Source: Venenivibrio stagnispumantis (GTDB lineage: Bacteria; Aquificota; Aquificia; Aquificales; Hydrogenothermaceae). Taken from it: DNA of 55,222 nucleotides. A program made the position numbers and the translations under genes. Location of the stretch: NCBI RefSeq assembly GCF_900182795.1, contig NZ_FXTX01000010.1, forward strand, positions 1 to 55,222, written 5' to 3'. The notes beneath the pieces were generated by a model that worked only from the letters and a program-made list of their open reading frames with translations, searched no databases and was not told the DNA's origin. Below are positions 99-43,557 of this stretch, piece after piece. Every line of letters begins with the position of its first letter. Position 1 is the stretch's first letter.

Positions 99-350
99 AT
101 GAAACTTTACCCAAATGCAAGAATATTAACTATTATTCCACCGTTTATTTTCTTTGGATTTGTTCTTCCTGCTTGGTTTTTTGTAGGATATTGGTTTATT
201 ATGCAAGTTTTATTTGCTTTAATTACCCCAACTTATATGGGTGGTGTAGCTTGGTATGCCCATATAGGTGGGTTTATAGCCGGCTGGTATCTTACAGATA
301 TTTTATACCAGCCAAAAAAGGTTAAGATTTATTATAGAGAAAGATTATGA
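99..350 (+). CDS. small hydrophobic protein resembling only the last helices of a rhomboid protease (possible remnant)
   Basis: 83-aa ORF; 'WYAHIGGFIAGW' resembles the rhomboid TM6 His motif but no GxSG serine helix is present; in-frame stops upstream, so it is not truncated by the window edge. Confidence 0.3.
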   Translation: MKLYPNARILTIIPPFIFFGFVLPAWFFVGYWFIMQVLFALITPTYMGGVAWYAHIGGFIAGWYLTDILYQPKKVKIYYRERL

Positions 351-3480: not shown

Positions 3481-4275
3481 TTATTTTAAAATTATGACTT
3501 CTTCAAATAGATTTATATTAAGTATATCTTTGGCACTATTTTCTTTCAAGAATATTTCATAAAATCCAAAACTTCCTTTTATCAAAGATGGAATATATTT
3601 ATCTCCCTCTTGAAAATTATTACATATTTTTAGCTGATAATCTCTAAATAATATTTTGCTATTTTCCGGTATTTTATCAATATTTGTAATAGCATTTCCG
3701 AATTTATCAAATTTTATAACCTTACCTATTATTCTATCTTCTTTTTCTTCCGGATAAATATCTTTCATTATCACTAAATTATCTTTTTTTAACTTTTTGC
3801 CAAAATTTTTTAATGCTACTCCCCTTGATATGTAAGCAGATACCGGTGCAAAAATATCCCTTCCGTGAAATGTGTTCGTATCACTTTTTAACATATATTT
3901 TTTATTTTCTATTTTAACAATTTCCTTTATCTTTTCATTTTTTAAAGGTAGGGTAAGAATTCCATTGTTTGGAGATACGAATATATAATTTTCGGTTTTT
4001 ACTATGATAGCTTCTCTTTCTGTGCCTACTCCTGGGTCTACTACCGATAAAAATATGGTTCCTTTTGGAAAATATTTATAAGTAGCATTTAATATAATAG
4101 AGGCTTCAAGTATTGAAAAAGATTCTACTTCATGGGATATATCAACTATTTCTATATTTGGATTTATTGAAAGGATAACGGCTTTTAAAGACCCTACAAA
4201 ACCGTCTTTATTTCCAAAGTCGGTCAGTAGGGCTATTATTTTTTTACTTTTTTGATTTTTTATAATTTTCATCAA
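3481..4275 (-). CDS. S-adenosyl-L-methionine hydroxide adenosyltransferase (SAM hydrolase; DUF62, fluorinase/chlorinase-like family)
   Basis: 264 aa; 'IALLTDFG..DGFVGSLK' and 'VVDPGVGT' hallmark motifs; 5' end overlaps skp by 32 nt. Confidence 0.8.
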   Translation of the reverse strand: MMKIIKNQKSKKIIALLTDFGNKDGFVGSLKAVILSINPNIEIVDISHEVESFSILEASIILNATYKYFPKGTIFLSVVDPGVGTEREAIIVKTENYIFVSPNNGILTLPLKNEKIKEIVKIENKKYMLKSDTNTFHGRDIFAPVSAYISRGVALKNFGKKLKKDNLVIMKDIYPEEKEDRIIGKVIKFDKFGNAITNIDKIPENSKILFRDYQLKICNNFQEGDKYIPSLIKGSFGFYEIFLKENSAKDILNINLFEEVIILK

Positions 4276-4690
4276 AATACTTTAAAAATTCATCTGTTTT
4301 GTCAAGTTCATCTTTACCGTATAAAACAGCCTGTTTATCTATGATGAGTGTGTAATTTTTTGCTTTTGCAAAAGAACTGATATTATCCTGAACATTTTTC
4401 ATAAAAGATTGAATTAACTCTTCTCTTTTGGCAAGTATTTCTTGTTGTTTTTGAACTGCTAAAGCTTGAAGTTCTTCTTGAGCCTTTTGGTCACCTGGTT
4501 TTAATGCTTTTTCTTTTTGAGAAATCTCTTCCTGAGCCTTTTTAGCCATGTTTTCTAATATGCTTTGGGCTTCTTTTCCGGCTACTGAGTCTCTAACAAT
4601 TTTTTGGATATCAATAAAAACTATCTCTGCTGCAAATGTAAAACTTGAGATAACTAAAACTGATAACAATGAAAATAAAATTTTAAACAT
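4244..4690 (-). CDS. skp: OmpH/Skp-family periplasmic chaperone
   Basis: signal peptide 'MFKILFSLLSVLVISSFTFA', Gln/Lys-rich coiled coil, C-terminal 'TLIIDKQAVLYGKDELDKT' resembles Skp; start taken at internal Met. Confidence 0.7.
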   Translation of the reverse strand: MFKILFSLLSVLVISSFTFAAEIVFIDIQKIVRDSVAGKEAQSILENMAKKAQEEISQKEKALKPGDQKAQEELQALAVQKQQEILAKREELIQSFMKNVQDNISSFAKAKNYTLIIDKQAVLYGKDELDKTDEFLKYFDENYKKSKK

Positions 4691-4736
4691 AAAATCCTCC
4701 TTTAAAATCAAATTTTAATATATATTACCACAAATA

Positions 4737-5573
4737 TTATTCTATTGTGCAGATACTTTCAGGTCTTTTTATTCTCAGTGCCAATATCTCAAATATTCTA
4801 AAATAATGATCCATATTTTCATAATTTATATAGGCTGTTATCATATCCTGGGCTACTAAAATATCCATATTTTCTATTCCTGCAGAGAGAACTATTGCTG
4901 TGTTTGGTGGTATTACAGGAGTAGCAAATATTCCAAAATCACATAACTTTCTTATCTGTTCTATTTCTAATATTCCTGTATTTGAATAAACTCTATGAAG
5001 TTTTGCATAATCTTTTGTATTTAATATTAAAGCAAAGTTTGAGTAAAATCCGGCATCATTTAAAACCTGAATAGCTTGGAGAACATCTTCAAATGCATTT
5101 CCGGTTTTATTCCACTCCGAAATTGATATAGAATTTCTACCAACAACATTTAGAAGTCCCGGATATCCAATGGTAGCATCTCCGTGAAAAATAAGCTGGT
5201 CTTCTGCTATACAAACGGACACTGTTGCAGTTGCAACTATACTTTTATCTATACCGGCATTTATTTTTTTTGCATACTCTATATCTCTCCAATGAATTTT
5301 AAAATCTTTATACAAAATCGGTAATGGCAAAAATTTTCTATCTTTTATCTGAACTACTCCGCATTCCTGTTCTCCAAATAATCCACAAGCTCCATAATCT
5401 CCACTGTCTATAATATCATAATTAATAGATTGAATAGATGGGTCAGGTAAAGTAGAGATTTCTATAAATCTCCTACCTATCAATGTTTTTCTTGCTGTTT
5501 CTATTACAGTATTATCTATCTCTTGCCATTGGCTTTCTGTTAAAGGTGCCTCATTTCTTTTTAAAAATTCCAT
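4737..5573 (-). CDS. family-1 encapsulin nanocompartment shell protein (linocin M18-like, HK97 fold)
   Basis: 278 aa; N-terminus 'MEFLKRNEAPLTESQWQEIDN' and several internal blocks ('EDQLIFHG','ALILNTKDY') closely parallel the Thermotoga maritima encapsulin sequence as I recall it. Confidence 0.85.
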   Translation of the reverse strand: MEFLKRNEAPLTESQWQEIDNTVIETARKTLIGRRFIEISTLPDPSIQSINYDIIDSGDYGACGLFGEQECGVVQIKDRKFLPLPILYKDFKIHWRDIEYAKKINAGIDKSIVATATVSVCIAEDQLIFHGDATIGYPGLLNVVGRNSISISEWNKTGNAFEDVLQAIQVLNDAGFYSNFALILNTKDYAKLHRVYSNTGILEIEQIRKLCDFGIFATPVIPPNTAIVLSAGIENMDILVAQDMITAYINYENMDHYFRIFEILALRIKRPESICTIE

Positions 5574-5637
5574 TTCTATAACCTCCTAAATATCTTTTCC
5601 TAATCCTAAATATAAATATTAATTTTAGTTTTGCAAT

Positions 5638-6495
5638 CTATTCTATATTTTGAACCTGTTGTTTTATTTTATCTATCTCTGATTTTATCTGAACTGTAAA
5701 ACTACTTAAATCCGGAATTTTGTTTCCCATTGTTGTTGCTTCTCTAAGCATCTCTTGGGTTAAAAAATCAAGCTTACGACCGATGGCTTCATCTTTTTTA
5801 AGCATATCTTTAAAAGCAGATATATGAGCTTTTAATCTTACTATTTCTTCTGTTATATCCATTTTTTCAGCAATGATACTACTTTCAATAAAAGCCCTTT
5901 CAGAAAAATTTTCTCCAAGAAGTTGTTTTATTCTGAGAGAAATTTTTTCCTGATATCTTTTGATAATATCATCTTTTATCTTTTCTACCTCTTCCAATAA
6001 ATCAGATATATTGCTTAATCTCAAATCTATATCTTCAATCAAGAATTGTGCTTCTTTTTTTCTTTCTTCTTTTAGTTTTGTCAAAGCCTCTTCTAAAACT
6101 TCCATTATTAATGATTTTTTATCTTCCTCTATCTCTTTTTCTTCTTTATTTGTTAAAGCAAAACTAATATCATAAAGTTTATCATCTGATAGATTTAAAT
6201 TCATATTTTGAAATATATCTCTTAATGAGTTTAATGTATTTTTAAAACTTTCTACATCAAAAGCAAGATTAATAATATTGTTATCTACATAATTTATATA
6301 AATCTGAAAACTTCCTCTTTCAAAGAATTCTTGGACTTTTTTTCGGATATCAAGTTCTAAATAAAAAAGAATATCTTTATTACCTTTGATTGAAATATCT
6401 ATCCCTTTATTATTAACTGATTTAATCTTTACAGAAATTTCACAATTATCAATATTTTTCTTTATAAAAGAAAAACCGGTCATACTATACGGCAT
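5638..6495 (-). CDS. yicC: YicC-family stress-induced protein (YicC N-terminal domain + DUF1732)
   Basis: 285 aa; 'MTGF' start region, coiled-coil middle, conserved C-terminal 'LDFLTQEMLREATTMGNK'-type block. Confidence 0.8.
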   Translation of the reverse strand: MPYSMTGFSFIKKNIDNCEISVKIKSVNNKGIDISIKGNKDILFYLELDIRKKVQEFFERGSFQIYINYVDNNIINLAFDVESFKNTLNSLRDIFQNMNLNLSDDKLYDISFALTNKEEKEIEEDKKSLIMEVLEEALTKLKEERKKEAQFLIEDIDLRLSNISDLLEEVEKIKDDIIKRYQEKISLRIKQLLGENFSERAFIESSIIAEKMDITEEIVRLKAHISAFKDMLKKDEAIGRKLDFLTQEMLREATTMGNKIPDLSSFTVQIKSEIDKIKQQVQNIE

Positions 6496-6585: not shown

Positions 6586-7203
6586 ATGTTTGAAAATTTG
6601 AAATTTGATGAAAATGGATTAATACCTGTTATTACCCAAAGTTATTATACAGGAAAAATATTAATGCAGGCTTATGCCAATAAAGAAGCCCTTGAAGAAA
6701 CTTTAAAATCAGGTTATGCCACTTATTATTCCCGTTCAAGAAAATCTTTATGGAAAAAGGGAGAAACATCAGGAAATCTCCAAAAAGTTATAAAAATTAA
6801 AATAGATTGTGATGAAGATAGTGTTTTATATCTTGTAGAAGAAGAAGGACCGGCATGCCATACAGGAAGAGAAAGCTGTTTTTTCAGAGATATAGATTTT
6901 AAAGAGGATGAAAAACCTGATGGTTTTGAAGTTTTTTTTAAATTATATGAAAAAATAAAAGATAGAAAAAATAATCTACCGGAAAACTCTTATGTTAGCT
7001 CATTATTTAAAAAAGGTTCCGATAAAATAATTCAAAAAGTAGGAGAGGAAGCAGTAGAAACAGTTATAGCTTTAAAAAATGGAAAAAAGGAAGAAATTAT
7101 TTATGAAGTTTCAGATTTAATATTTCATCTACTGATTGCTTTGGTAGATAAAGAGGTATCATTAAAAGAGATTGAAGAAGAGTTATTAAGAAGGTATAAA
7201 TAG
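6586..7203 (+). CDS. hisIE: bifunctional phosphoribosyl-AMP cyclohydrolase / phosphoribosyl-ATP pyrophosphatase
   Basis: N-terminal HisI motifs ('GLIPVITQ','SRSRKSLWKKGETSGN', Cys-rich metal site) and C-terminal HisE-like helical domain. Confidence 0.9.
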   Translation: MFENLKFDENGLIPVITQSYYTGKILMQAYANKEALEETLKSGYATYYSRSRKSLWKKGETSGNLQKVIKIKIDCDEDSVLYLVEEEGPACHTGRESCFFRDIDFKEDEKPDGFEVFFKLYEKIKDRKNNLPENSYVSSLFKKGSDKIIQKVGEEAVETVIALKNGKKEEIIYEVSDLIFHLLIALVDKEVSLKEIEEELLRRYK

Positions 7204-7214
7204 GAGGGTTTGAT

Positions 7215-8360
7215 ATGGAAATAAATATTGAAGCTAAAAATCCATCAAAAATTAAGGTTTTCGGGGTTGGTGGTGGTGGAAGTAATGCAGTTGCAAGAAT
7301 GTATCAAGAAGGTCTTCAAGATGTGGAGCTTTATATTGTTAATACGGATTTACAACATCTTGCATCTTTACCGGTTCCAAATAAAATACATATTGGAGAA
7401 TCAAAAACAAGAGGACTTGGTGCAGGTTCAAAACCGGAAGTAGGAAGAGAAGCAGCCCTTGAAAACCTTGATAAGATAAAAGAGGCAATGGAAGGGGCTG
7501 ATATGATATTTATAGCAGCCGGTTTAGGTGGTGGAACAGGAACAGGTGCAGCCCCTGTGATAGCTCAGGCAGCAAAAGAGATGGGAATATTAACGGTAGC
7601 AGTAGTTACAAAACCTTTTGCATTTGAAGGTAAAATAAGAGCCAATATAGCAGAACAAGGTCTTCAAGAAATAAAGGATAAAGTAGATACATACATTGTG
7701 ATTCACAATGAAAAATTATTATCAATTGCCGGAAGAAATTTAGCTTTTTCTCAGGCATTTAAATTAGTTGACAATATCCTATACAGAGCTGTAAGAGGAA
7801 TAACAGATTTAATATTAGTTCCTGCTCTTATCAATCTTGATTTTGCCGATGTAAAAACTATAATGGAAAATGCAGGTAAGGCTTTAATTGGTGTAGGTTC
7901 CGGAAAAGGAGAAAATAAAATTGAAGAAGCAGTTATATCTGCAACAACATCTCCACTTCTCGAAGGAACATCTATACAGGGAGCAAAAAGAATACTTATT
8001 AATATAGAAGTTAGTCCCGATTTATCGTTTATAGAAGTTAATGAGGCTATAAAACAAATAAGAGAACAGGCTCATGAAGAGGCTCATATCATATTTGGAG
8101 CTGCTATAAACAATGAGATAGAAGATGAAATAAAAATAACAGTTGTGGCAACTGATTTTGAAGGTGAAGAAAAAGAAGATTACATTCAAAGAAAAAAAGA
8201 GATATCAGTACAACCTACACAACAAAGAAAAGTTATAATACCACCAAAAACAGAAAAAGAACAACCAAAAGAAATTCCAAAAGTTCAACTTAATGATGAT
8301 TTCCTAAATGAAGATTTAGACATACCGGCCTATATTAGAAAAAGGGGTAAACCGTCTTGA
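7215..8360 (+). CDS. ftsZ: cell division GTPase FtsZ
   Basis: '[10 protein letters not shown]', tubulin signature '[11 protein letters not shown]', C-terminal variable linker. Confidence 0.97.
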
Positions 8361-8872
8361 TTATAAGTTTGGCTAATCTTACAACATTATCAAGATTAGC
8401 TATTATTCCTTTTTTGATATATGCTATCTTGAATGAAAAATATATTATTTCAGGAATATTAACCGGATATGCTATCTTTTCTGATTATATAGATGGCATA
8501 ATAGCAAGAGCTAATAAAGATGTAACAAAACACGGAGAGTTATTAGACCCGGCTGTAGATAAAATATTTACAATATCGGTTTTGGTTGCTTTTGTTGAAA
8601 AGCAAGTAATATCTACTTATGTGGTTTTTTTAATAGTTTTAAGGGAAATGATTATAACTTGGGTCAGGTCTGTTTTGGTAAATAAAGGTATAGTTTTGCC
8701 GGCTTCTTATCTTGGAAAGATAAAAACAACTTTTCAGATGATAGGTATTTTTCTACTTACTATAAATTTTAATTTTTATGGTGTTATATTTTTATGGATA
8801 TCTATATTTTTTGCTTATGTATCTGCTATTGATTATTTTAGAATCTTTTATAGAGAGAAAGCATGGATTTAG
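8357..8872 (+). CDS. pgsA: CDP-alcohol phosphatidyltransferase (phosphatidylglycerophosphate synthase-like)
   Basis: 'DYIDGIIAR...G...DPAVDK' D-G-x2-A-R...D-x3-D motif; TTG start overlapping ftsZ stop. Confidence 0.75.
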   Translation: MIISLANLTTLSRLAIIPFLIYAILNEKYIISGILTGYAIFSDYIDGIIARANKDVTKHGELLDPAVDKIFTISVLVAFVEKQVISTYVVFLIVLREMIITWVRSVLVNKGIVLPASYLGKIKTTFQMIGIFLLTINFNFYGVIFLWISIFFAYVSAIDYFRIFYREKAWI

Positions 8873-9448: not shown

Positions 9449-10603
9449 TTATCTATGTATTTTCTCCCAAACTTTTGTAGCTTCTTTACATTCTTCTATT
9501 GTTGGAACAAGGGCTATTCTGAAATATTCTGATTGGCATATATTTTCTTTTACTTCTGTAGAACTACAGAAATTTTCTCCTATGGAAACTATAATTCCAT
9601 TTTGTATTAGATTTTTCACATAATCTTTTGAAGGTGATTTTATCCATATATAAAATGTTGCTTTTGGATATAGATACTGTAAGCCTATTTTATCTAAAAA
9701 TTCTATCATTATATCTCTTTTTGCTTTAAATATCTGATTTCTTTCTTTAACATGCTCTTCATCTGACCAAGCTTTAGCAGCTGCAAGTTGTATAAAATCC
9801 GGTGAAGCTACTCCAAAATTTGCTCTTTGTTTTTTATATTCCGATATTATTTTTTCATCTCCGGCAATAAATCCAGACCTGTATCCTGTCATTCCGCTTC
9901 TTTTAGATAAAGAATGGAAAACCACTACATTTTCTTTTTCTATTTCAAGTAAAGATAATGGTTTTTCTTCAAAATATATCTCTGTATAACATTCATCAGA
10001 ACAAAGGATTATATTATATTCTTTGCATATATGATATATATCTTCAAGATAACTTTTATCTGCTGTTGCTCCGGTTGGGTTATGTGGATAATTTATCCAG
10101 ACTATTTTTGTTTCTTCTAATATAGATTTTTCTACTTTATCTAATCTGAGTAAAAATTTATCTTCTTCTTTTAGTTTTATAGGAGTAGGTATGCCATTTG
10201 CAAATAATGTGCCTCTTTCATATACCGGATATGCCGGTGTGCCAAATATTACTCTTTTTTTTGCTTCTTCTTCATCTATAAAAACAAGTGGAAAATGAAA
10301 TATCGCTTCTTTTGAGCCGGCAGATGGTATAATCTCTTTATCCGGATTTAACTTTACTCCAAACCTTTTTTCAAACCATACTGAAATTGCATCTCTTAAC
10401 TCTTTTCTTCCGGCTACAGAAGGATATTGGGAGATTTCCGGAATAGAGTTTTTTAAAGCATCTATTATAAATTTTGGTGTTGGTTCCCTTGGGTCTCCTG
10501 TCCCAAAATCATATATCTTTATATTTTTTTCTTTAAGAGATGCTTTTATCTTATTAAGCTCTTCCATTGGATATTCTTTTAACTCTTTTATAAATCTATT
10601 CAT
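9449..10603 (-). CDS. PLP-dependent class I/II aminotransferase (LL-diaminopimelate / succinyl-DAP aminotransferase-like)
   Basis: 'YPHNPTG', '[14 protein letters not shown]' Lys-containing PLP motif; 384 aa; translationally coupled to gyrA. Confidence 0.75.
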
Positions 10604-13600
10604 TCTTTTACCTCTGGATATAAAATAGCTCCTATAACTTTATCTTTAAATAATAACTCTCCAATGGCTGTTCTTTTTGATGTTGGGAATACTTTTTCAT
10701 CTATTTTGGTTTTTAATATTCTGCCGGATTCAAGGGAAAGTATTACTGTATCGTTTATATTTACAGGTAGTATTACAGAAAGGGCATCATCTTTATTTAA
10801 TTTTACAGTCATTAAACCTTTTTGTCCTCTTTTCTTCGTAGGAAATTCTTCTACCGGAACAAGTTTTGCATATCCTTTTTCTGTAATTGTTAAAAGATAC
10901 TTTTTATCCTCTTTTAATAAAAATCCACCTACTACTTCATCTGATGGGTCAAGGTCTATTGCTGATATTCCTTTTGCTTTATCTTTTGTGATTCTTATTT
11001 CATTTCTTTCAAATATTAATAAATCTGCTTTCCTTGTGTATATTCCTAATACCGTGTTATCTTGGTCTGCAAAAGCTGTGCAAAGGGCATCATCTTCATC
11101 AAGAGGCATTATATTATGTGCCTGGGATTTATAAAATATATCTTCATCAGACATTCTTTTTATAAATCCTTTCTTAGATATTAAGAATACTCTATTTTCT
11201 TCTCCTTCTGATTGGTAAGCAGTTCCTACAATATCAGAATCAATATCTATTTTTTCCGGTAAATCTATAACAAGAGACCAATAAGCTGTGGCTTTTTCTG
11301 TAATAAAGCAAACCGGCTTAGAAGAATCTACCATCTGCAATGATATTATTTTTTCTCTTGGAACTGAGCTATTTGATACATCTTGAATAACTTTATTAAA
11401 TAGCTCTTCTTTTGTATAAGGCTCTGCAAGTTTATATTTTATTATTCTTCCACTATTTAAAACTGCAAATATATAATCTTCTTTAAATGTTAAATCTTTC
11501 TCTGCTGATATTATAGATGTTTTTCTTTCATCTGCATATTTTGAGATTATCTCATCCATTTCTTCAATAAATATATTTATCTTTTCTTCTTCGGAAGATA
11601 ATATTTTTTTGTATTTTTCTATATCTAATTTTAGCTGATTTTGTTCTTCTTTTAATTTTTCTGTTTCAAGGGCTGTAAATCTTGATAATCTCATATCAAG
11701 AATAGCATTTGCCTGTTTTTCTGATAAATTAAATTTATCAATCAATTGATTTCTTGCTTCTGATATATCTTTTGCCTTTCTTATTGTATCTATTATATTA
11801 TCAGCATTTTCCAATGCTTTTATTAATCCTTCTAATATATGGGACCTATTTTCTGCTTTTTCTAAATCAAATAAGGTTCTTCTTGTTATTACTTCTAATC
11901 TATGTTTTATAAATTCTGCAAGGATTTCCTTTAATGTCATTACTTTTGGCTGTTTATCTGCAAGGACTGTAAGGTTTATTGGAATATTTTTTTCAAGTGG
12001 TGTGCTTTTATATAATTTTTTCAATACTTTTTCAGGGTCTGCTTCTCTTTTTAGCTCTATTACTATTCTTATTCCGGTTCTGTCTGATTCATCTCTTAAA
12101 TCTGATATTCCTTTTTCTTTTCCTGTTTTTACAAGTTCTGCTATCTTTTTAATAAGTTCTACTTTATTAACCTGATAAGGTATTTCATATATAACTATTC
12201 TTTGCCTGTTTCCGGGAAGTTTTTCTATTCTGGCTTTACCTCTTACGGTTATAGAGCCTTTAGCTGATTTGTAAATATTTATTATCTCTTCTTGTGATGA
12301 TATTATTGTTCCACCTGTTGGAAAATCAGGAGCTTTTATAAATTGACATATTTCTTCTATGGTAGCATCCGGAAATTGGGCAAGATATTTTAATGCTTCT
12401 CCTACTTCCCTTAAATTGTGAGGAGGAATGTTAGTAGCCAAACCTACTGCTATACCGGATGTTCCATTACATATAAAATTAGGAAATTTAGAAGGTAAAA
12501 CCGTTGGCTCTTGTAGGGAAGCATCAAAATTAAGACTCATATCTACAGTATTTTTTTCTATATCTGCAAGCATTTCCATTGCAAGCTTTGTTAATCTTGC
12601 TTCTGTATTGTGATTAATAATTCCATTGGCGACAAAAGAGTGGCAATCACTATTTACCCTTATAGAGTAAACAACTTTTTTTCCGGTTTTTCTTATATTT
12701 TTTACTTTTGCAAAATAATATCTATTTTTTAGTAGTTCTTTTAAAAATTGAATATCATTAAAATCAAATATTTCTTTAATTTGATGCCAGATATTTTCTA
12801 TTTTGTAATATCTGTTTATGTTGAGATTTAAGTTATACTTTCTAAATATATACTCTCTTAAATAAGGTATAAATTCTGTTCTATCTGTTAACCAGTTATT
12901 ATTTTTTAATATATTTTTTAATTTTTTCTGTTTTTCTTCTGTCAAAAATCCTACGTTTTCATAAAATAGCTTTATATTTGAGTATTCTGATATAGATAAA
13001 TAATTGAGATATAAATCTTTTTCTATTTTTGATATAATGCCAAAATTAAGAAGTAAAATCTGGATTTGTTTTAATAGATTTTTGCTTTTAGAAAATAGAT
13101 AGATAGAGCTTTTTTCTTCATCTACTACTGCATCTTTTTCAAACAAAGCTTTTAAAAATGATTTTTGTATATTTTTAGAAGATTTTAAAACAATAGATGG
13201 AATTTCTTTTTCTTTGATTTTCTGGATAACTTTTTTACTTTTTATATTTGAGCTATGCCAATCTCTATCTATTTTATAGTTTAAATTTTCACCTTTTATT
13301 ATATTTCCATAAGCTATATAAGAGCCAAGTAAAACTGCTTCTTCTTCTGTGAGTAAATCTTGGATTGAGTCTATATCATTAAATCTGCTTACTACTATAT
13401 AATCTCCTTCTTTTATTTTATCAAGGGTTTTCCATACATAAACCGGTTTTCTATATTTTGTTTTACTTCTTTCAAAAACTAAAACCGGATGGTTATAACT
13501 TCCTTCTATCTCATATCCTTCTTCTGTTTCTATCTTTATTGTGTAATGTTCTCCACTATTGAAAAACATATCAGAATGATTTATTTTTCTATTTAATGAT

Positions 13601-14067
13601 TGGACTTTTATATCTATTGGATTATCTGAATTCAGCTGGCTGTTTGGAACTAAATCTTTTATTTTTATTAATCCTTTATCTGTATTTATTAATGTATCTC
13701 CGACAACGCAATATCTCATTGCTGCCGGTGGGTCTCCATCTATTGAGCCAAAGTTTCCCTGTCCTTCAATAAGTGGATATCTTAATGTGAAATCCTGTGC
13801 CATTCTAACAAGTGCATCATAAACAGCTGCATCTCCATGGGGGTGATACTTTGCTATAACGTTTCCTACCGTTCTTGCTGATTTCTTGTATGGTTTATTA
13901 GGATGCATTCCTTCTTCATACATTGCATAAAGTATTCTTCTTTGAACCGGTTTTAAACCATCTCTAACATCCGGAATAGCCCTTCCAACTATAACAGACA
14001 TTGCATAATCTATATAAGAGCTTTTAACTTCTTCTTCTATCGGAACTTTAATGATTTCTTCTGACAT
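10600..14067 (-). CDS. gyrA: DNA gyrase subunit A, intein-containing precursor (exteins ~787 aa + 368-aa intein)
   Basis: N-terminal '[11 protein letters not shown]', 'YHPHGD', 'AAMRY|...|TEARL' split by insertion; C-terminal beta-pinwheel repeats. Confidence 0.95.
12607..13710 (-). mobile_element. GyrA intein (Mxe GyrA-like Hint domain split by a LAGLIDADG-type endonuclease-like domain)
   Basis: begins with Cys after catalytic Tyr, block B 'NHP', ends 'HN' followed by Thr; boundaries derived by codon counting (codons 120-487 of the ORF). Confidence 0.9.
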
Positions 14068-38858: not shown

Positions 38859-39677
38859 TTACTCCACAATTTTATTTACCAAATCATAAGCAAAATTCCT
38901 TTTTATACCAAACTTTTCAATAATCTCTTTTACTAAATCCTTTTTTGTTTTATTTTTTAAATTTTTTTTAATATAATTTTCTACTGCTTTTATATCAATA
39001 TTTTCTTCTTTTTCCGGATAAGCTAATATAACAAACTCACCTTTTAATTTTTCTTTATTTTTTTCAAAAAAATCTATAATATCTTTCGGTTTTCCGTAAA
39101 TATATTCTTCATGAATTTTCGTAAGTTCTTTTGCCACTACCATATCGCTATTTGGCATAATTTGATTATATATATATAATGTCTTCATTATTCTTTTTGG
39201 GCTTTCATATACAATAAATGTATAGCCTATTTCTTTATATTTTTTAAGCTCTTCTTTTATTTTTTTTGGATTTAAAAATCCTACGAATAAAAATTTATCA
39301 GAAGGAAGTCCTGATGCTGATAATGCTACTGCCCCGGCAAATGCTCCGGGAATAGCAACTACTTTAATATTATTTTCTCTTGCTTTTTTTACAACTTTAT
39401 ATCCGGGGTCTGAAATACAAGGTGTGCCTGCATCTGATATTAATGCTACATCTTCATTTTGTAATATCTTTATTATTTTTTCTGCTTTTTCTTCTTCAAC
39501 CACATCATAATATGATATTAATTTTTTATTTGTTATACCATAAGCAGATAAGAGTTTTTTTGCAACTCTTGTATCTTCGCATGCTATATAATTTACAGAG
39601 TTTAAAACTTCTACTGCTCTATAACTAATATCTTTAAGATTTCCAATTGGTGTAGCAACGATATATAATGTTGGCAT
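38859..39677 (-). CDS. rsmI: 16S rRNA (cytidine1402-2'-O)-methyltransferase
   Basis: 'LYIVATPIGNLKDIS', 'IACEDTR', 'LISDAGTPCISDPG'. Confidence 0.9.
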   Translation of the reverse strand: MPTLYIVATPIGNLKDISYRAVEVLNSVNYIACEDTRVAKKLLSAYGITNKKLISYYDVVEEEKAEKIIKILQNEDVALISDAGTPCISDPGYKVVKKARENNIKVVAIPGAFAGAVALSASGLPSDKFLFVGFLNPKKIKEELKKYKEIGYTFIVYESPKRIMKTLYIYNQIMPNSDMVVAKELTKIHEEYIYGKPKDIIDFFEKNKEKLKGEFVILAYPEKEENIDIKAVENYIKKNLKNKTKKDLVKEIIEKFGIKRNFAYDLVNKIVE

Positions 39678-40489
39678 TATTTAATTATTTTATCATGTAG
39701 ATTTTTATATCCGGTAAATATACCATTTTTATAAACTGCAACTTTACCATTTGGAAGATATATGTTAGTGTTTATCTTTTTTCCTATCTCTGTATTATTA
39801 ATTTCTGCAAATTTTATATGTTTTTGGGCAAATGGTTCTAAATATGTTTTTGTATAAAGCTGAATATATCTACTTTCATCTAATATAGATAAAGTTATAT
39901 CTTTTAAAGTTATTGGTGTATCGTTCTTTATTATATAAAATCCGGTTAATTTTTTATTGTCCATATCATATATATAAGAAACATCCCAACTTATATCCGA
40001 TACCGGATATTTAATAAATATTGTTGCAGTTTTAGGTTTATCAGAGTTTAATTTTATAGTTAAATAAGGTGATGTTATTTCTTGCCATCTTAATGAAGAT
40101 GATATTCTACTTGGGAATGTAGGAAGGGTTGTTACTACTATACCTGATTTTGTATCTATTGTAATAAAGCCATCTTTTATAGATACTACCGTTCCTCTTA
40201 TTAATCTTCCATCACCTTCTATTGATACAGTTTTTCCTACTAAATTTTCTATGGTTGATTGTTTTGTAATGGATGATATATATCCTAAGATTTTTACATC
40301 ATTACTTTTTATCATTAAAGCATCTGTTTTTGCATTAGGTAATAATGAAACAGGGCCTACAACACTTTCACCTTGAGCTACCAAAAATTCTGTTTGCTGT
40401 ATGTATGTGGAATTGTTATTTTTACCTACAACTAACTCATTGGCAAAAGCAAAACTAACTAAGAATAAAAAAATAAAAATTTTCTTCAT
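39677..40489 (-). CDS. secreted protein of unknown function (possibly DUF4139-like)
   Basis: signal peptide 'MKKIFIFLFLVSFAFA', beta-rich; family assignment from memory only. Confidence 0.45.
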   Translation of the reverse strand: MKKIFIFLFLVSFAFANELVVGKNNNSTYIQQTEFLVAQGESVVGPVSLLPNAKTDALMIKSNDVKILGYISSITKQSTIENLVGKTVSIEGDGRLIRGTVVSIKDGFITIDTKSGIVVTTLPTFPSRISSSLRWQEITSPYLTIKLNSDKPKTATIFIKYPVSDISWDVSYIYDMDNKKLTGFYIIKNDTPITLKDITLSILDESRYIQLYTKTYLEPFAQKHIKFAEINNTEIGKKINTNIYLPNGKVAVYKNGIFTGYKNLHDKIIK

Positions 40490-40560: not shown

Positions 40561-41025
40561 ATGAGTATAACACAGATTATTTTAAACATTGCCCTTATAG
40601 GTGGCGACCCTGTTTTGTATATTTTACTTTTGATGAGTATTATTACCGTAGCAGTAATTGTTGAAAGATTTATCTCTTATAAAGATATAGAAAAACATTT
40701 ATCAGAATATAAAGATGAGATATCTTTAAGGCTTGATTTGGAAAAGCGGCTTGGTATTTTAGCAACATTTGGTAATAATGCTCCTTTCATAGGTTTATTT
40801 GGAACGGTTTTAGGTATTATAAAAGCTTTTCATGATTTAGGGCATTCTTCTGAGTTTGGCGTCCGTGTTGTTATGGCAGGAATATCTGAAGCTCTTGTAG
40901 CAACTGCTATGGGTCTGTTTGTAGCTATTCCATCTGTTATTGCCTATAACTATTTTGTAAGAAAAAGCAGGAAAATTTTAATGATTTACTCTGCTATGAA
41001 GGAGAAAACAAATGAAAATAAATGA
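40561..41025 (+). CDS. exbB: MotA/TolQ/ExbB proton-channel protein
   Basis: 'APFIGLFGTVLGIIKAF', 'GISEALVATAMGLFVAIP'. Confidence 0.85.
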   Translation: MSITQIILNIALIGGDPVLYILLLMSIITVAVIVERFISYKDIEKHLSEYKDEISLRLDLEKRLGILATFGNNAPFIGLFGTVLGIIKAFHDLGHSSEFGVRVVMAGISEALVATAMGLFVAIPSVIAYNYFVRKSRKILMIYSAMKEKTNENK

Positions 41026-41407
41026 TGAAGAAAAAGAAATTTCCGAAATAAATATGACACCTTTTGTTGATATTATATTAGTTGTGCTTATTATATTTAT
41101 GGCAACTGCTACCTTTATGGTAGAAGGGAAAATTCCTCTTGATTTACCAAAAGCAAAAACCGGAGAAGCAGGAAAAAATATAGAAAGAATAGAAATATCC
41201 ATAAAGAAAGATGGCTCTATATATATTGCAGATAAAAAAGTATCTCCTGAAGAGTTAAAGCAAGAGCTGGAAAAAATAAAAAGCGAAAATAAAGTTGTAG
41301 CATTAAGGTCAGAAAAAGAAACACCATTTCAAAATGTTGTTACAGTAATTGATATTTGTAGGTCTGCAGGAATAGAAAAGTATGTTATTGAAACAAAAAA
41401 AGAGTAA
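41012..41407 (+). CDS. exbD: ExbD/TolR biopolymer transport protein
   Basis: 'INMTPFVDIILVVLIIFM' and periplasmic domain; overlaps exbB. Confidence 0.85.
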   Translation: MKINDEEKEISEINMTPFVDIILVVLIIFMATATFMVEGKIPLDLPKAKTGEAGKNIERIEISIKKDGSIYIADKKVSPEELKQELEKIKSENKVVALRSEKETPFQNVVTVIDICRSAGIEKYVIETKKE

Positions 41408-41410
41408 TAA

Positions 41411-42292
41411 ATGAAGGATTTTATCACAAAAAATCTGTTTGGGATAAGTTTTGCAATATCAATATTTATTCATATCTTGCTTTTTGTTTCTCTTTATTTT
41501 TTATCGGTAAAACCTGAGAAACCACAAGAAGAAAAGGTTATAACAGTATCAATAGAAGAAGCTTTAAAATCTGAAAAACCAAGGCTTCCTAAGATAGAAA
41601 AACCAATTCCATCACTACCACAGGAAGAAATCAAAAAGCCAAAACCACCTGAAGAACCAAAGCCTGAAAAAAAACCGGAGATTAAGCAAGAAACAAAACC
41701 GGAAGAAGAACAAAAACCTAAACCAGAACAGCCTAAACCTCAAATAAAACTGGAACAATCAATAACTACTAATAAACAAACAAAACCGGAAGAAGAACAA
41801 AAGCCTAAACCAGAACAATCCAAACCTCAAATAGAGCCGGAACAATCAATAACTACCAATCAAGAAACGAAAAAAGAAGAAAAAATAGTATCACCAAAAC
41901 AGGAAACAAAACCTACTCAACAACAGCCACAACAACCTATAGATATAACAAAAGGAAAAACAGATAAGTTTGAAACATTACCAAAAAAAGAGGAAGATAT
42001 AGATGGATATCTTAAAGAGTTAATAAGATATTTAAATGAGGTTGCAAGGGAAAGAGATTTATATCCACCTCTCGCTAAAAGATTAAAAATAGAAGGAGAA
42101 GTGGTCGTTAGAGTAACAATTAATGAAGATGGAACTATTGATGAAAACTCTATAAAGATAGTAGAAGGAAGCGGTTATAATGTATTGGATAAAGGAGCAA
42201 TAGAAATTTTGAAGAAATTATCACCATACAAAAAACCTCCTAAAAAAATAACCGTTGAAATTCCTATAGTATTCCAAATAATAAATATGTAA
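41411..42292 (+). CDS. tonB: TonB-family energy transducer (Pro/Glu/Lys-rich linker + C-terminal TonB domain)
   Basis: N-terminal TM helix, (KPEEEQKPKPEQ) linker, C-terminal 'YPPLAKRLKIEGEVVVRVTINEDG'. Confidence 0.8.
   Translation: MKDFITKNLFGISFAISIFIHILLFVSLYFLSVKPEKPQEEKVITVSIEEALKSEKPRLPKIEKPIPSLPQEEIKKPKPPEEPKPEKKPEIKQETKPEEEQKPKPEQPKPQIKLEQSITTNKQTKPEEEQKPKPEQSKPQIEPEQSITTNQETKKEEKIVSPKQETKPTQQQPQQPIDITKGKTDKFETLPKKEEDIDGYLKELIRYLNEVARERDLYPPLAKRLKIEGEVVVRVTINEDGTIDENSIKIVEGSGYNVLDKGAIEILKKLSPYKKPPKKITVEIPIVFQIINM
41694..41867 (+). repeat. two tandem copies of an 87-bp (29-codon) in-frame repeat in the tonB linker
   Basis: TKPEEEQKPKPEQ[P/S]KPQI..EQSITTN repeated with ~90% nt identity; partial third unit follows. 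Confidence 0.75.
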
Positions 42293-42354: not shown

Positions 42355-43557
42355 TTGGCAAATATCGCTATCACTACCCTTGATTTTCAAAAAGTTTCAG
42401 AACAACCGGTTGAGATTGTTGAAAGAAAAGGGACAGGACATCCGGATACAATATGTGATGCATTAGCTGAAGAGCTGTCCATAGCTTTATCAAATCTTTA
42501 CAGAGAAGAATTTGGAGCTATTATGCACCACAATGTAGATAAAGCCTTACTTATAGGTGGTATTGCTGACCCACAATTCAAAGGTGGTAAAATTATAGAG
42601 CCTATAGAGATATATTTAACAGGAAGAGCAATAGATGAAAAAGGAAATAAAAAATTACCGGTAAAAGAGCTTGCAATAGAAACAGCCCATAAATGGTTAA
42701 AGGAAAATATTCCAAATTTAGATATAGCAAATCATGTTATTATCCATCCTAAGTTAAAACCAGGAAGTAAAGATTTAGTAGAATTATTTGAAAGATTCCA
42801 GCTTAAAGGAGAAATTCCTTTGGCTAATGATACATCTTTTGGTGTTGGATTTGCTCCATTTTCAGATATAGAAACAATTGTTTATGAACTTGAAAGAGCT
42901 TTAAACAGTAAAGAATTTAAAAAGGAACATCCATATGTAGGAGAAGATATAAAAATAATGGGTGTTAGAAACAATGATAATATAAGAATAACAATAGCTA
43001 TGGCTTTTGTTGATAAATATATAAATGATATAAAGGATTATGTAGAGAAAAAAGAGATTGTTACAAATTATGCATACTCAATAGCAAAAAAATTAACAAC
43101 AAAAACTGTGGATATATTTATAAATACTGCTGACGATATAGATAATCAATCTGTATATATAACAGTAACCGGAACATCTGCAGAAGCAGGAGATGATGGA
43201 CAGGTTGGAAGAGGAAATAGGGTTAATGGTTTAATCACACCTTATAGACCTATGAGTTTGGAAGCTGCAGCGGGCAAAAACCCTGTTAGCCACATAGGAA
43301 AAATTTATAATACGGCTGCAATGGATATGGCAGAAAGAATAGTAGCAGAAATAGAAGAAGTGGAAGAAGTATATTGTTATCTTGTTAGCCAAATAGGTAA
43401 ACCAATTACAGAGCCACAAGTATGTGATGTTAAATTAAGAACATCAAAAGATATAAAAGGCATAGAAGAAAAAGTAAGAAAAATAGCCCAAGAAGAGATT
43501 GATAAACTCCCTGAAACTTGGAAAAAATTCTTAAATAGACATTTCAGATTATATTAA
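42355..43557 (+). CDS. archaeal-type S-adenosylmethionine synthetase (MJ1208/PF01941 class)
   Basis: '[15 protein letters not shown]','HHNVDK','[14 protein letters not shown]','[48 protein letters not shown]' are near-identical to archaeal MAT blocks as recalled; not bacterial MetK-like; TTG start. Confidence 0.85.

Follow-up and report, generated by a model that had tools for sequence, protein, structure and literature searches.

An EncA-type encapsulin shell gene of Venenivibrio stagnispumantis and its probable double ferritin-like cargo encoded at a distant locus

The analysis concerns a 55,222-nt stretch of Venenivibrio stagnispumantis DNA (NCBI RefSeq assembly GCF_900182795.1, contig NZ_FXTX01000010.1, positions 1 to 55,222; hereafter the window), which contains a gene for a family 1 encapsulin shell protein with no cargo gene next to it. 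It is highly probable from the sequences compared here that this gene belongs to a split iron-oxidation and iron-storage encapsulin system, in which an EncA-type shell would be loaded in trans by a double ferritin-like protein (DFLP) encoded at a distal site. The analysis directly supports the family assignment and the fold of either protein and the separation of their genes, and it shows that catalytic, heme, targeting-peptide and docking residues are conserved. A preliminary description of the window had left it open whether the shell takes up a cargo encoded elsewhere, is empty, or uses an unrecognised cargo. The first of these is now strongly supported, because the ortholog of the cargo that adjoins the shell gene in relatives, complete with a targeting peptide, sits on the same chromosome; the other two appear improbable and are weighed below.

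The shell gene is located as follows.

4737..5573, minus strand: family 1 encapsulin shell gene, EncA-type (278 aa, ATG start, WP_265133874.1; PF04454 and NF041155)

The deduced protein is 100% identical to WP_265133874.1 from V. stagnispumantis. The hidden Markov model search proposed in the preliminary description bore out its assignment as an encapsulin: residues 1–264 matched PF04454 (Linocin_M18; 8e-64, 215.7 bits, Pfam cutoff 24.3), and residues 4–277 matched the NCBIfam equivalog NF041155 ('family 1 encapsulin nanocompartment shell protein'; 7.3e-77, 258.3 bits, cutoff 100), both near full length and above the curated cutoffs. Among proteins of solved structure, the best sequence match was EncA from Myxococcus xanthus (4pt2; E 1.5e-72, 41% identity), which aligned to residues 2–278 without gaps. 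The encapsulin from Dendrosporobacter quercicolus (9i8e, 278 aa) followed at 5.4e-70, and further close solved shells were those from Bacillus methanolicus (9fy6) and Q. thermotolerans (6nj8). The likeness to the Thermotoga maritima shell protein on which the preliminary description had relied proved weak (E 4.7e-17, approximately 25% identity).

An AlphaFold2 model of the shell protein (predicted local distance difference test score, pLDDT, 92.3) has the HK97 fold with an N-terminal helix at residues 13–30, and shows neither an N-terminal extension nor a cNMP domain nor a fused cargo domain. In Foldseek comparisons, it superposed on EncA (8vjo) with a template modelling (TM) score of 0.94 and a root-mean-square deviation of 1.4 Å, and on the D. 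quercicolus shell protein (9i8e) with a TM score of 0.95, the superpositions spanning 271–278 columns. The T=1 shells from T. maritima and Mycobacterium gave TM scores of only approximately 0.78 at approximately 7.6 Å. Because EncA and 9i8e superpose closely while the T=1 shells superpose poorly, the protein is assigned to the clade of large iron-storage shells of the EncA type rather than to the T. maritima type. By analogy to the nearest solved homologues, the particle is probably of T=3 or T=4 architecture (180 or 240 subunits), a choice that a monomer cannot decide. Literature searches for encapsulins in Sulfurihydrogenibium and for the PDB code 9I8E returned no reports.

The shell locus lacks a co-operonic gene for a cargo with a C-terminal targeting peptide, a feature that is typical although not universal for family 1 systems. 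A hidden cargo open reading frame (ORF) beside the shell gene was rejected, as the flanking intergenic gaps of 64 and 46 nt are too short; with the profile matches above, neither finding that the preliminary description had named as refuting its view, the lack of an encapsulin match or a missed small cargo gene next to the shell gene, was made. Inspection of domains and termini agreed with its statement that neither neighbour is of a cargo type: no ferritin, DyP or hemerythrin domain was found in either of them, and no targeting-peptide-like C-terminus on either neighbour or on the S-adenosylmethionine (SAM) hydrolase or NYN-domain protein that follow downstream. Over the whole 55 kb, tblastn with the cargo proteins of two relatives gave no cargo match, and two six-frame scans for targeting peptides, the second with the general motif [LFMIV]-x-[VIL]-G-x-[LIVM], returned only spurious matches (an antisense ORF and the transmembrane tail of a membrane protein). 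A Pfam survey of approximately 40 further larger ORFs in the window identified ordinary housekeeping genes and no cargo family. Together with the two Venenivibrio loci L009 (around the DFLP gene) and L011 (around the shell gene), the part of the genome inspected for cargo amounted to approximately 90 kb of 1.58 Mb.

The comparison of gene order was built locus by locus from the shell and cargo loci of relatives. Throughout the Hydrogenothermaceae, Sulfurihydrogenibium azorense among them, there are shell homologs with 58–68% identity, and all six shell loci examined from this family (the window/L011, L001, L006, L007, L008 and L017) are without an adjacent cargo gene. Two further loci, L003 and L015, with shell proteins 56% and 54% identical to that of Venenivibrio, carry a gene for a ferritin/rubrerythrin-like protein of 309 and 307 aa, respectively, that begins 12 nt downstream of the shell gene. 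The C-terminal ends of these cargo proteins, ...ALTVGSLFKKKD (also given as ...ISALTVGSLFKKKD), contain the LTVGSL targeting peptide of the M. xanthus type, and the L003 protein is 79% identical to a protein from Hydrogenivirga. In a relative with a 48% identical shell protein, an EncFtn-like gene lies upstream of the shell gene, and its product ends in GLTVGQLKG. The synteny comparison that the preliminary description had recommended thus yielded both the cargo-adjacent loci and the six loci without cargo.

A search with the L003 cargo protein identified P0121 (WP_265133675.1, UniProt A0AA45WPR6), a 309-aa 'ferritin-like domain-containing protein [Venenivibrio stagnispumantis]', at 61% identity (E 2.4e-109). 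The window corresponds to BAAHXM010000001.1:228,608–283,829 (0 mismatches over the 15,573 nt compared). On this 1,580,841-bp contig the shell gene lies at 233,344–234,180 on the minus strand and the gene encoding P0121 at 495,538–496,467 on the plus strand, 261,358 bp apart. P0121 residues 7–282 matched PDB entry 9viw (306 aa, 'Bacterioferritin') at 8e-43, which is probably the DFLP from Thermocrinis minervae (TmDFLP). The AlphaFold2 model of P0121 (pLDDT 83.8) consists of two four-helix bundles (helices within residues 2–138 and 151–273), and each half superposed on bacterioferritin subunits in Foldseek, in half-length matches only. As judged by its sequence, P0121 is a DFLP and the ortholog of the cargo proteins whose genes adjoin the shell genes of relatives. 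The DFLP gene (L009 10001–10930) and phoX are divergently oriented, and phoD and a set of genes for a TonB-dependent receptor, ExbBD and TonB lie 1.5–9 kb upstream.

DFLPs were named in a recent preprint (bioRxiv 10.1101/2025.09.13.676036), according to which TmDFLP and CaDFLP are heme-binding homodimers, TmDFLP has ferroxidase activity, and the N-terminal domain (NTD) holds a di-iron site of the type EEHEEH (E17, E47, H50, E92, E122 and H125), with M48 and M198 as putative heme ligands. In an alignment of 24 sequences, the NTD ligands E50, H53, E94, E124 and H127 of P0121 were invariant and E20 nearly so, completing the EEHEEH site, and the heme ligands M51 and M200 were invariant as well. 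P0121 ends in ...KAIISALTVGNLYNKRS, and its tail (...ISALTVGNLYNKRS) contains the targeting peptide L299-T-V-G-N-L304 followed by five residues. This fits the family 1 motif [LF]-x-[VI]-G-x-[LI] given in the same preprint (bioRxiv 10.1101/2025.09.13.676036) plus 1–14 residues. T300, V301 and G302 were invariant in the alignment, and the linker preceding the peptide varied. The tail (residues 293–309), which contains the peptide, was modelled with low confidence and is presumably flexible.

Polar contacts of EncA to its targeting peptide are made by R28, R34, D38, D213 and D243 (PMC10402063). R28, R34, D38 and D243 correspond to R28, R34, E38 and D243 of the Venenivibrio shell protein. Among 59 shell homologs R34 was present in all (59/59) and D243 in 58/59, R/K28 and E/D38 were conserved, and the docking residues were equally conserved in orphan and in cargo-adjacent shells. 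Since both the docking residues and the targeting peptide of the unlinked cargo are conserved, the alignments argue for continued selection on the shell-cargo interaction.

The separation of the two genes was confirmed in both other Hydrogenothermaceae genomes checked for cargo (2/2, Sulfurihydrogenibium clade). In the metagenome-assembled genome GCA_027049315.1, one contig carries both the shell gene (product 64% identical) and the DFLP gene, at a distance of approximately 108.5 kb. The DFLP gene of S. subterraneum stands alone and is convergent with a PNP_UDP_1 gene, as in Venenivibrio, with a different upstream neighbour; the upstream phoX/phoD/TonB context of Venenivibrio is not kept there. 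Because the DFLP genes of S. subterraneum and Venenivibrio share the convergent PNP_UDP_1 gene, the gene order points to a single relocation of the DFLP gene before Venenivibrio and Sulfurihydrogenibium diverged. The shell-only loci suggest that the split extends throughout the whole family Hydrogenothermaceae.

The proposed course of events is as follows. The 278-aa EncA-type protein would self-assemble into a large icosahedral shell, probably of T=3 or T=4 type. During assembly the DFLP, probably a heme-bridged dimer, would dock by its disordered C-terminal tail to a pocket predicted to be formed by the N-terminal helix and the P-domain of the shell protein. Fe2+ would then enter via the shell pores and be oxidised at the N-terminal di-iron site of the DFLP, and the ferric mineral would be kept in the shell lumen. 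EncA/EncBC and IMEF systems are established to have such an iron-oxidising and iron-storing function; for DFLP systems it has been proposed, and it is assigned here by analogy. With regard to gene order, an ancestral operon in which the shell gene preceded the DFLP gene, as in the relatives, would have lost the cargo gene to another site in the ancestor that Venenivibrio shares with Sulfurihydrogenibium, and the rearrangement would have left the shell gene directly upstream of a housekeeping pair encoding an OmpH-like protein and a SAM hydrolase.

In the window, the shell gene is surrounded by the following features.

5582..5587, minus strand: Shine-Dalgarno sequence AGGAGG, 8 nt upstream of the ATG of the shell gene, read from the sequence
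5609..5636, minus strand: promoter-like sequence TTGCAA-16-TATATT in the 64-nt gap between yicC and the shell gene, consensus match only
5638..6495, minus strand: YicC-family endoribonuclease gene, upstream neighbour (PF03755 and PF08340, TIGR00255)
4244..4690 from the ATG (ORF 4244..4711), minus strand: OmpH/Skp-like periplasmic chaperone gene (148 aa; PF03938)
3481..4275, minus strand: SAM hydrolase (SAM_HAT) gene, conserved partner of ompH (PF01887 and PF20257)

Promoter-like sites in the region were as frequent as in shuffled sequences, so that the match at 5609..5636 is weak evidence for a promoter; -10-like TATAAT elements also occur upstream of orthologous shell genes. The identities of the same-strand neighbours given in the preliminary description, YicC upstream and Skp downstream, hold, the latter in a broader sense. 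The YicC protein reached 176.7 bits with TIGR00255 (cutoff 167.5). The downstream product reached 67.2 bits with PF03938 (cutoff 32.4) and 18.9 with NF008047, the equivalog for Escherichia coli Skp (cutoff 237), and is therefore termed a member of the OmpH family in the broad sense. Its N-terminus was read by eye as a Sec signal peptide (MFKILFSLLSVLVISSFTFAA, followed by E). Separated from the shell gene by 46 nt, the downstream ompH gene has a ribosome-binding site of its own (GGAGGA) and is followed by the genes for the SAM hydrolase and the NYN-domain protein. No terminator-like site was found on the minus strand between the shell gene and ompH. Because of this and the 46-nt gap, the two genes are probably co-transcribed.

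Adjacency of the shell gene and a co-oriented ompH, at distances of approximately 16–64 nt, was observed in all six Hydrogenothermaceae loci, in which the outer flanks on both sides differ; the SAM hydrolase gene continues the run in three of the six. The YicC gene adjoins the shell gene only in Venenivibrio, and the upstream neighbour is a different one in every relative examined. L006, L015 and L017 contain the OmpH-SAM_HAT pair as well, and the SAM hydrolase and OmpH proteins encoded in the window are 59% and 39% identical, respectively, to their L015 orthologs. In L015 this pair forms a separate unit, 3.5 kb from the intact shell-DFLP gene pair. Because it is independent of the latter there, the simplest account of the linkage would be a lineage-specific local rearrangement that placed the shell gene before ompH. 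Read-through from the shell gene may contribute to ompH expression and help to keep the adjacency.

The regions upstream of the shell and DFLP genes were also compared. No operator shared by both was found, and the best match to a Fur box upstream of the shell and cargo genes was 11/19. An 11-mer present upstream of both genes, AAACTAAAATT (window 5621–5631, minus strand; L009 9969–9979), was rejected as a regulatory motif, since 91 of 2000 shuffles reached it. It is absent from orthologous upstream regions and probably occurs by chance in DNA with 72% AT.

Several observations weigh against the assignment of the distal DFLP as cargo of the shell. The EncA contact D213 is replaced by F213 in the Venenivibrio shell protein, with D212 adjacent. 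The targeting peptide LTVGNL has N at a position where all 18 close homologs have S ([LFM]TVGSL; 18/18), a position that is variable in the published motif. The di-iron site of the C-terminal domain (CTD) of P0121 looks degenerate (e.g. K199, and Y275 where His is expected), and therefore only one of the two domains is likely catalytic; this agrees with the poorly conserved CTD sites reported in the preprint. No regulatory motif is shared upstream of the two genes, for which we infer co-expression. The inspection for cargo covered approximately 6% of the genome, leaving room for additional or alternative cargo. Finally, we infer the loading of the DFLP into the shell from motif conservation and homology.

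Other explanations of the orphan shell gene were considered. The shell might hold another cargo, additional or principal, such as an EncD-like flavin ferric reductase or a ferredoxin whose N-terminal part contains a TVGSL motif, its gene lying at another place in the genome, with the DFLP being 'secondary'. The EncA shell of M. xanthus loads three cargos, for which the preprint cites EncC and EncD structures besides EncB; the preprint itself labels TmDFLP 'secondary' (bioRxiv 10.1101/2025.09.13.676036); in IMEF systems there are additional ferredoxins that bear targeting peptides at the N-terminus (PMC8346489); and only some 90 kb of the genome were inspected. However, the DFLP gene is the sole gene adjoining the shell gene in the relatives that kept the operon, and the 55-kb window contains neither an ORF with a targeting peptide nor a ferritin, DyP or hemerythrin gene. 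We regard such a cargo as unlikely, and it would be compatible with the DFLP being a cargo, too. A similarly small chance is given to a reading that must be taken as a whole: that the order shell gene, ompH, SAM hydrolase gene, conserved across the Hydrogenothermaceae, is more than synteny and puts the shell under an envelope or housekeeping promoter, so that it would be made constitutively and independently of the iron cargo; that it would thereby be free for other clients bearing targeting peptides or for a role independent of cargo; and that the S-to-N change in the Venenivibrio targeting peptide would tune loading in trans.

Still less probable is an empty shell, or one that decays as a relic of an operon whose partner was lost, the DFLP then being an unencapsulated ferroxidase whose tail is vestigial. 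The unlinked genes would fit this, as would the existence of some DFLPs that have neither a targeting peptide nor an encapsulin (bioRxiv 10.1101/2025.09.13.676036), but the shell ORF is intact, its product is kept at 58–68% identity across the family together with its docking residues, and the T-V-G core of the DFLP peptide is invariant in lineages where the split of the genes predates the divergence of Venenivibrio and Sulfurihydrogenibium. Moreover, DFLPs form dimers rather than storage cages and would therefore need a shell to retain mineral (bioRxiv 10.1101/2025.09.13.676036). A role of OmpH/Skp or YicC as unconventional cargo or functional partner would explain why the shell gene precedes ompH in six of six Hydrogenothermaceae loci with differing outer flanks and no terminator in between. 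Yet OmpH, with its classical Sec signal peptide, would be exported, the shell protein has no such signal, OmpH has no terminus resembling a targeting peptide, and the OmpH-SAM_HAT pair of L015 is separate from the shell-DFLP pair; the restriction of the YicC adjacency to Venenivibrio speaks against YicC. Both proteins were rejected as cargo because OmpH has a signal peptide, a targeting peptide is missing and the orthologs in L015 are unlinked, and a role as partner is hardly credible. Loading of the shell in trans by the distal DFLP accordingly stands as the best explanation of the locus.

The closest precedent is T. minervae, whose genome carries the genes for DFLP and encapsulin at separate places and for which encapsulation of TmDFLP rests on AlphaFold models of peptide docking (bioRxiv 10.1101/2025.09.13.676036). 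Both organisms belong to the Aquificota and combine a family 1 shell with an unlinked DFLP that bears a C-terminal targeting peptide (FTIGGL in T. minervae, LTVGNL in Venenivibrio), the EEHEEH site in the NTD and two heme Met ligands. They differ in family (Aquificaceae versus Hydrogenothermaceae), in the CTD site (ESHEEH in TmDFLP, more degenerate in Venenivibrio with K199 and Y275) and in the joining of the Venenivibrio shell gene to the ompH-SAM hydrolase transcription unit. TmDFLP has been characterised biochemically, whereas the Venenivibrio proteins are known here from sequence and models. The M. xanthus system, a multi-cargo one in which EncB, EncC and EncD share the LTVGSL peptide, has the closest solved shell and agrees with Venenivibrio in the LTVGSL-type peptide and a ferritin-like ferroxidase cargo for iron storage. 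M. xanthus has, however, the single four-helix-bundle proteins EncB/EncC and a flavoprotein as cargos, in contrast to the double-domain, heme-type bacterioferritin-like protein of Venenivibrio, where no cargo gene at all adjoins the shell gene. T. maritima likewise has a family 1 HK97-fold shell and a ferritin-like cargo, but its shell is of the T=1 type (approximately 25% identity, TM score 0.78), and its adjacently encoded, decameric Flp cargo has a shorter targeting peptide.

In a survey of encapsulin systems (Andreas & Giessen 2021, PMC8346489), 'Bfr' cargo operons were described from Aquificae, Firmicutes, Chloroflexi and Cyanobacteria, with cargos built from a pair of four-helix bundles and bearing conserved C-terminal targeting peptides. 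These operons and those of L003 and L015, whose shells are 54–56% identical to that of Venenivibrio, contain the same cargo family; theirs is adjacent to the shell gene, whereas shell and cargo genes are 261 kb apart in Venenivibrio. The survey left 90 of 2,383 family 1 systems without an operon type (Andreas & Giessen 2021, PMC8346489), and the Venenivibrio shell would fall among them. Among the entries listed in its supplement, T. minervae, tagged 'Minor', was the sole match for the Aquificota genera queried (PMC8346489).

Further observations were made on genes near the shell locus and in the remainder of the window. A feoA-feoA-feoB ferrous iron transporter (L011 18336–20837) is encoded approximately 7.5 kb from the Venenivibrio shell gene, approximately 2.8 kb beyond window position 1, and a feoA-feoB pair (L001 14763–16837) lies approximately 6 kb from the shell gene of S. 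azorense, a loose recurring proximity to iron uptake. An ExbB-ExbD-TonB operon is present at window positions 40561–42292 (plus strand), and a second set lies by the TonB-dependent receptor gene near the DFLP gene (L009 643–4543). In addition to the SAM hydrolase gene (3481–4275), the window encodes an archaeal-type S-adenosylmethionine synthetase (42355–43557, plus strand; PF01941, E 1.2e-167). In L017, the SAM_HAT gene is directly followed by a 270-aa ORF to which no Pfam family is assigned and a TP_methylase gene (7075–8711); in the window, a 270-aa ORF (DUF6897) and a TP_methylase gene (38859–40489, minus strand) lie approximately 34 kb from SAM_HAT. If these genes are orthologous, this would be a further sign of local rearrangement at this locus in Venenivibrio. 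The gyrA gene (10600–14067, minus strand, 1155 aa) contains an intein with a LAGLIDADG homing endonuclease (PF14890 and PF14528 between the two DNA_topoisoIV segments). An 83-aa rhomboid fragment (99–350, plus strand) is the apparent end of a rhomboid gene split by an insertion sequence element (DDE_3 transposase with HTH_32/33; L011 15224–16974), and the other rhomboid piece lies just beyond the element.

A split arrangement of shell and DFLP genes was already known from T. minervae, and the Venenivibrio pair is no new kind of system. The present analysis extends the split-gene DFLP-encapsulin iron system from Thermocrinis to Venenivibrio and two genomes of the Sulfurihydrogenibium clade, and adds the occurrence of the split in three Hydrogenothermaceae genomes, its age, the shell gene-ompH context and the S-to-N variant of the targeting peptide. 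The thermophilic pair of an EncA-type shell and its cargo could serve engineering. More generally, an orphan encapsulin shell gene should not be read as coding for an empty compartment or for one of unknown cargo before the whole genome has been searched for targeting peptides.

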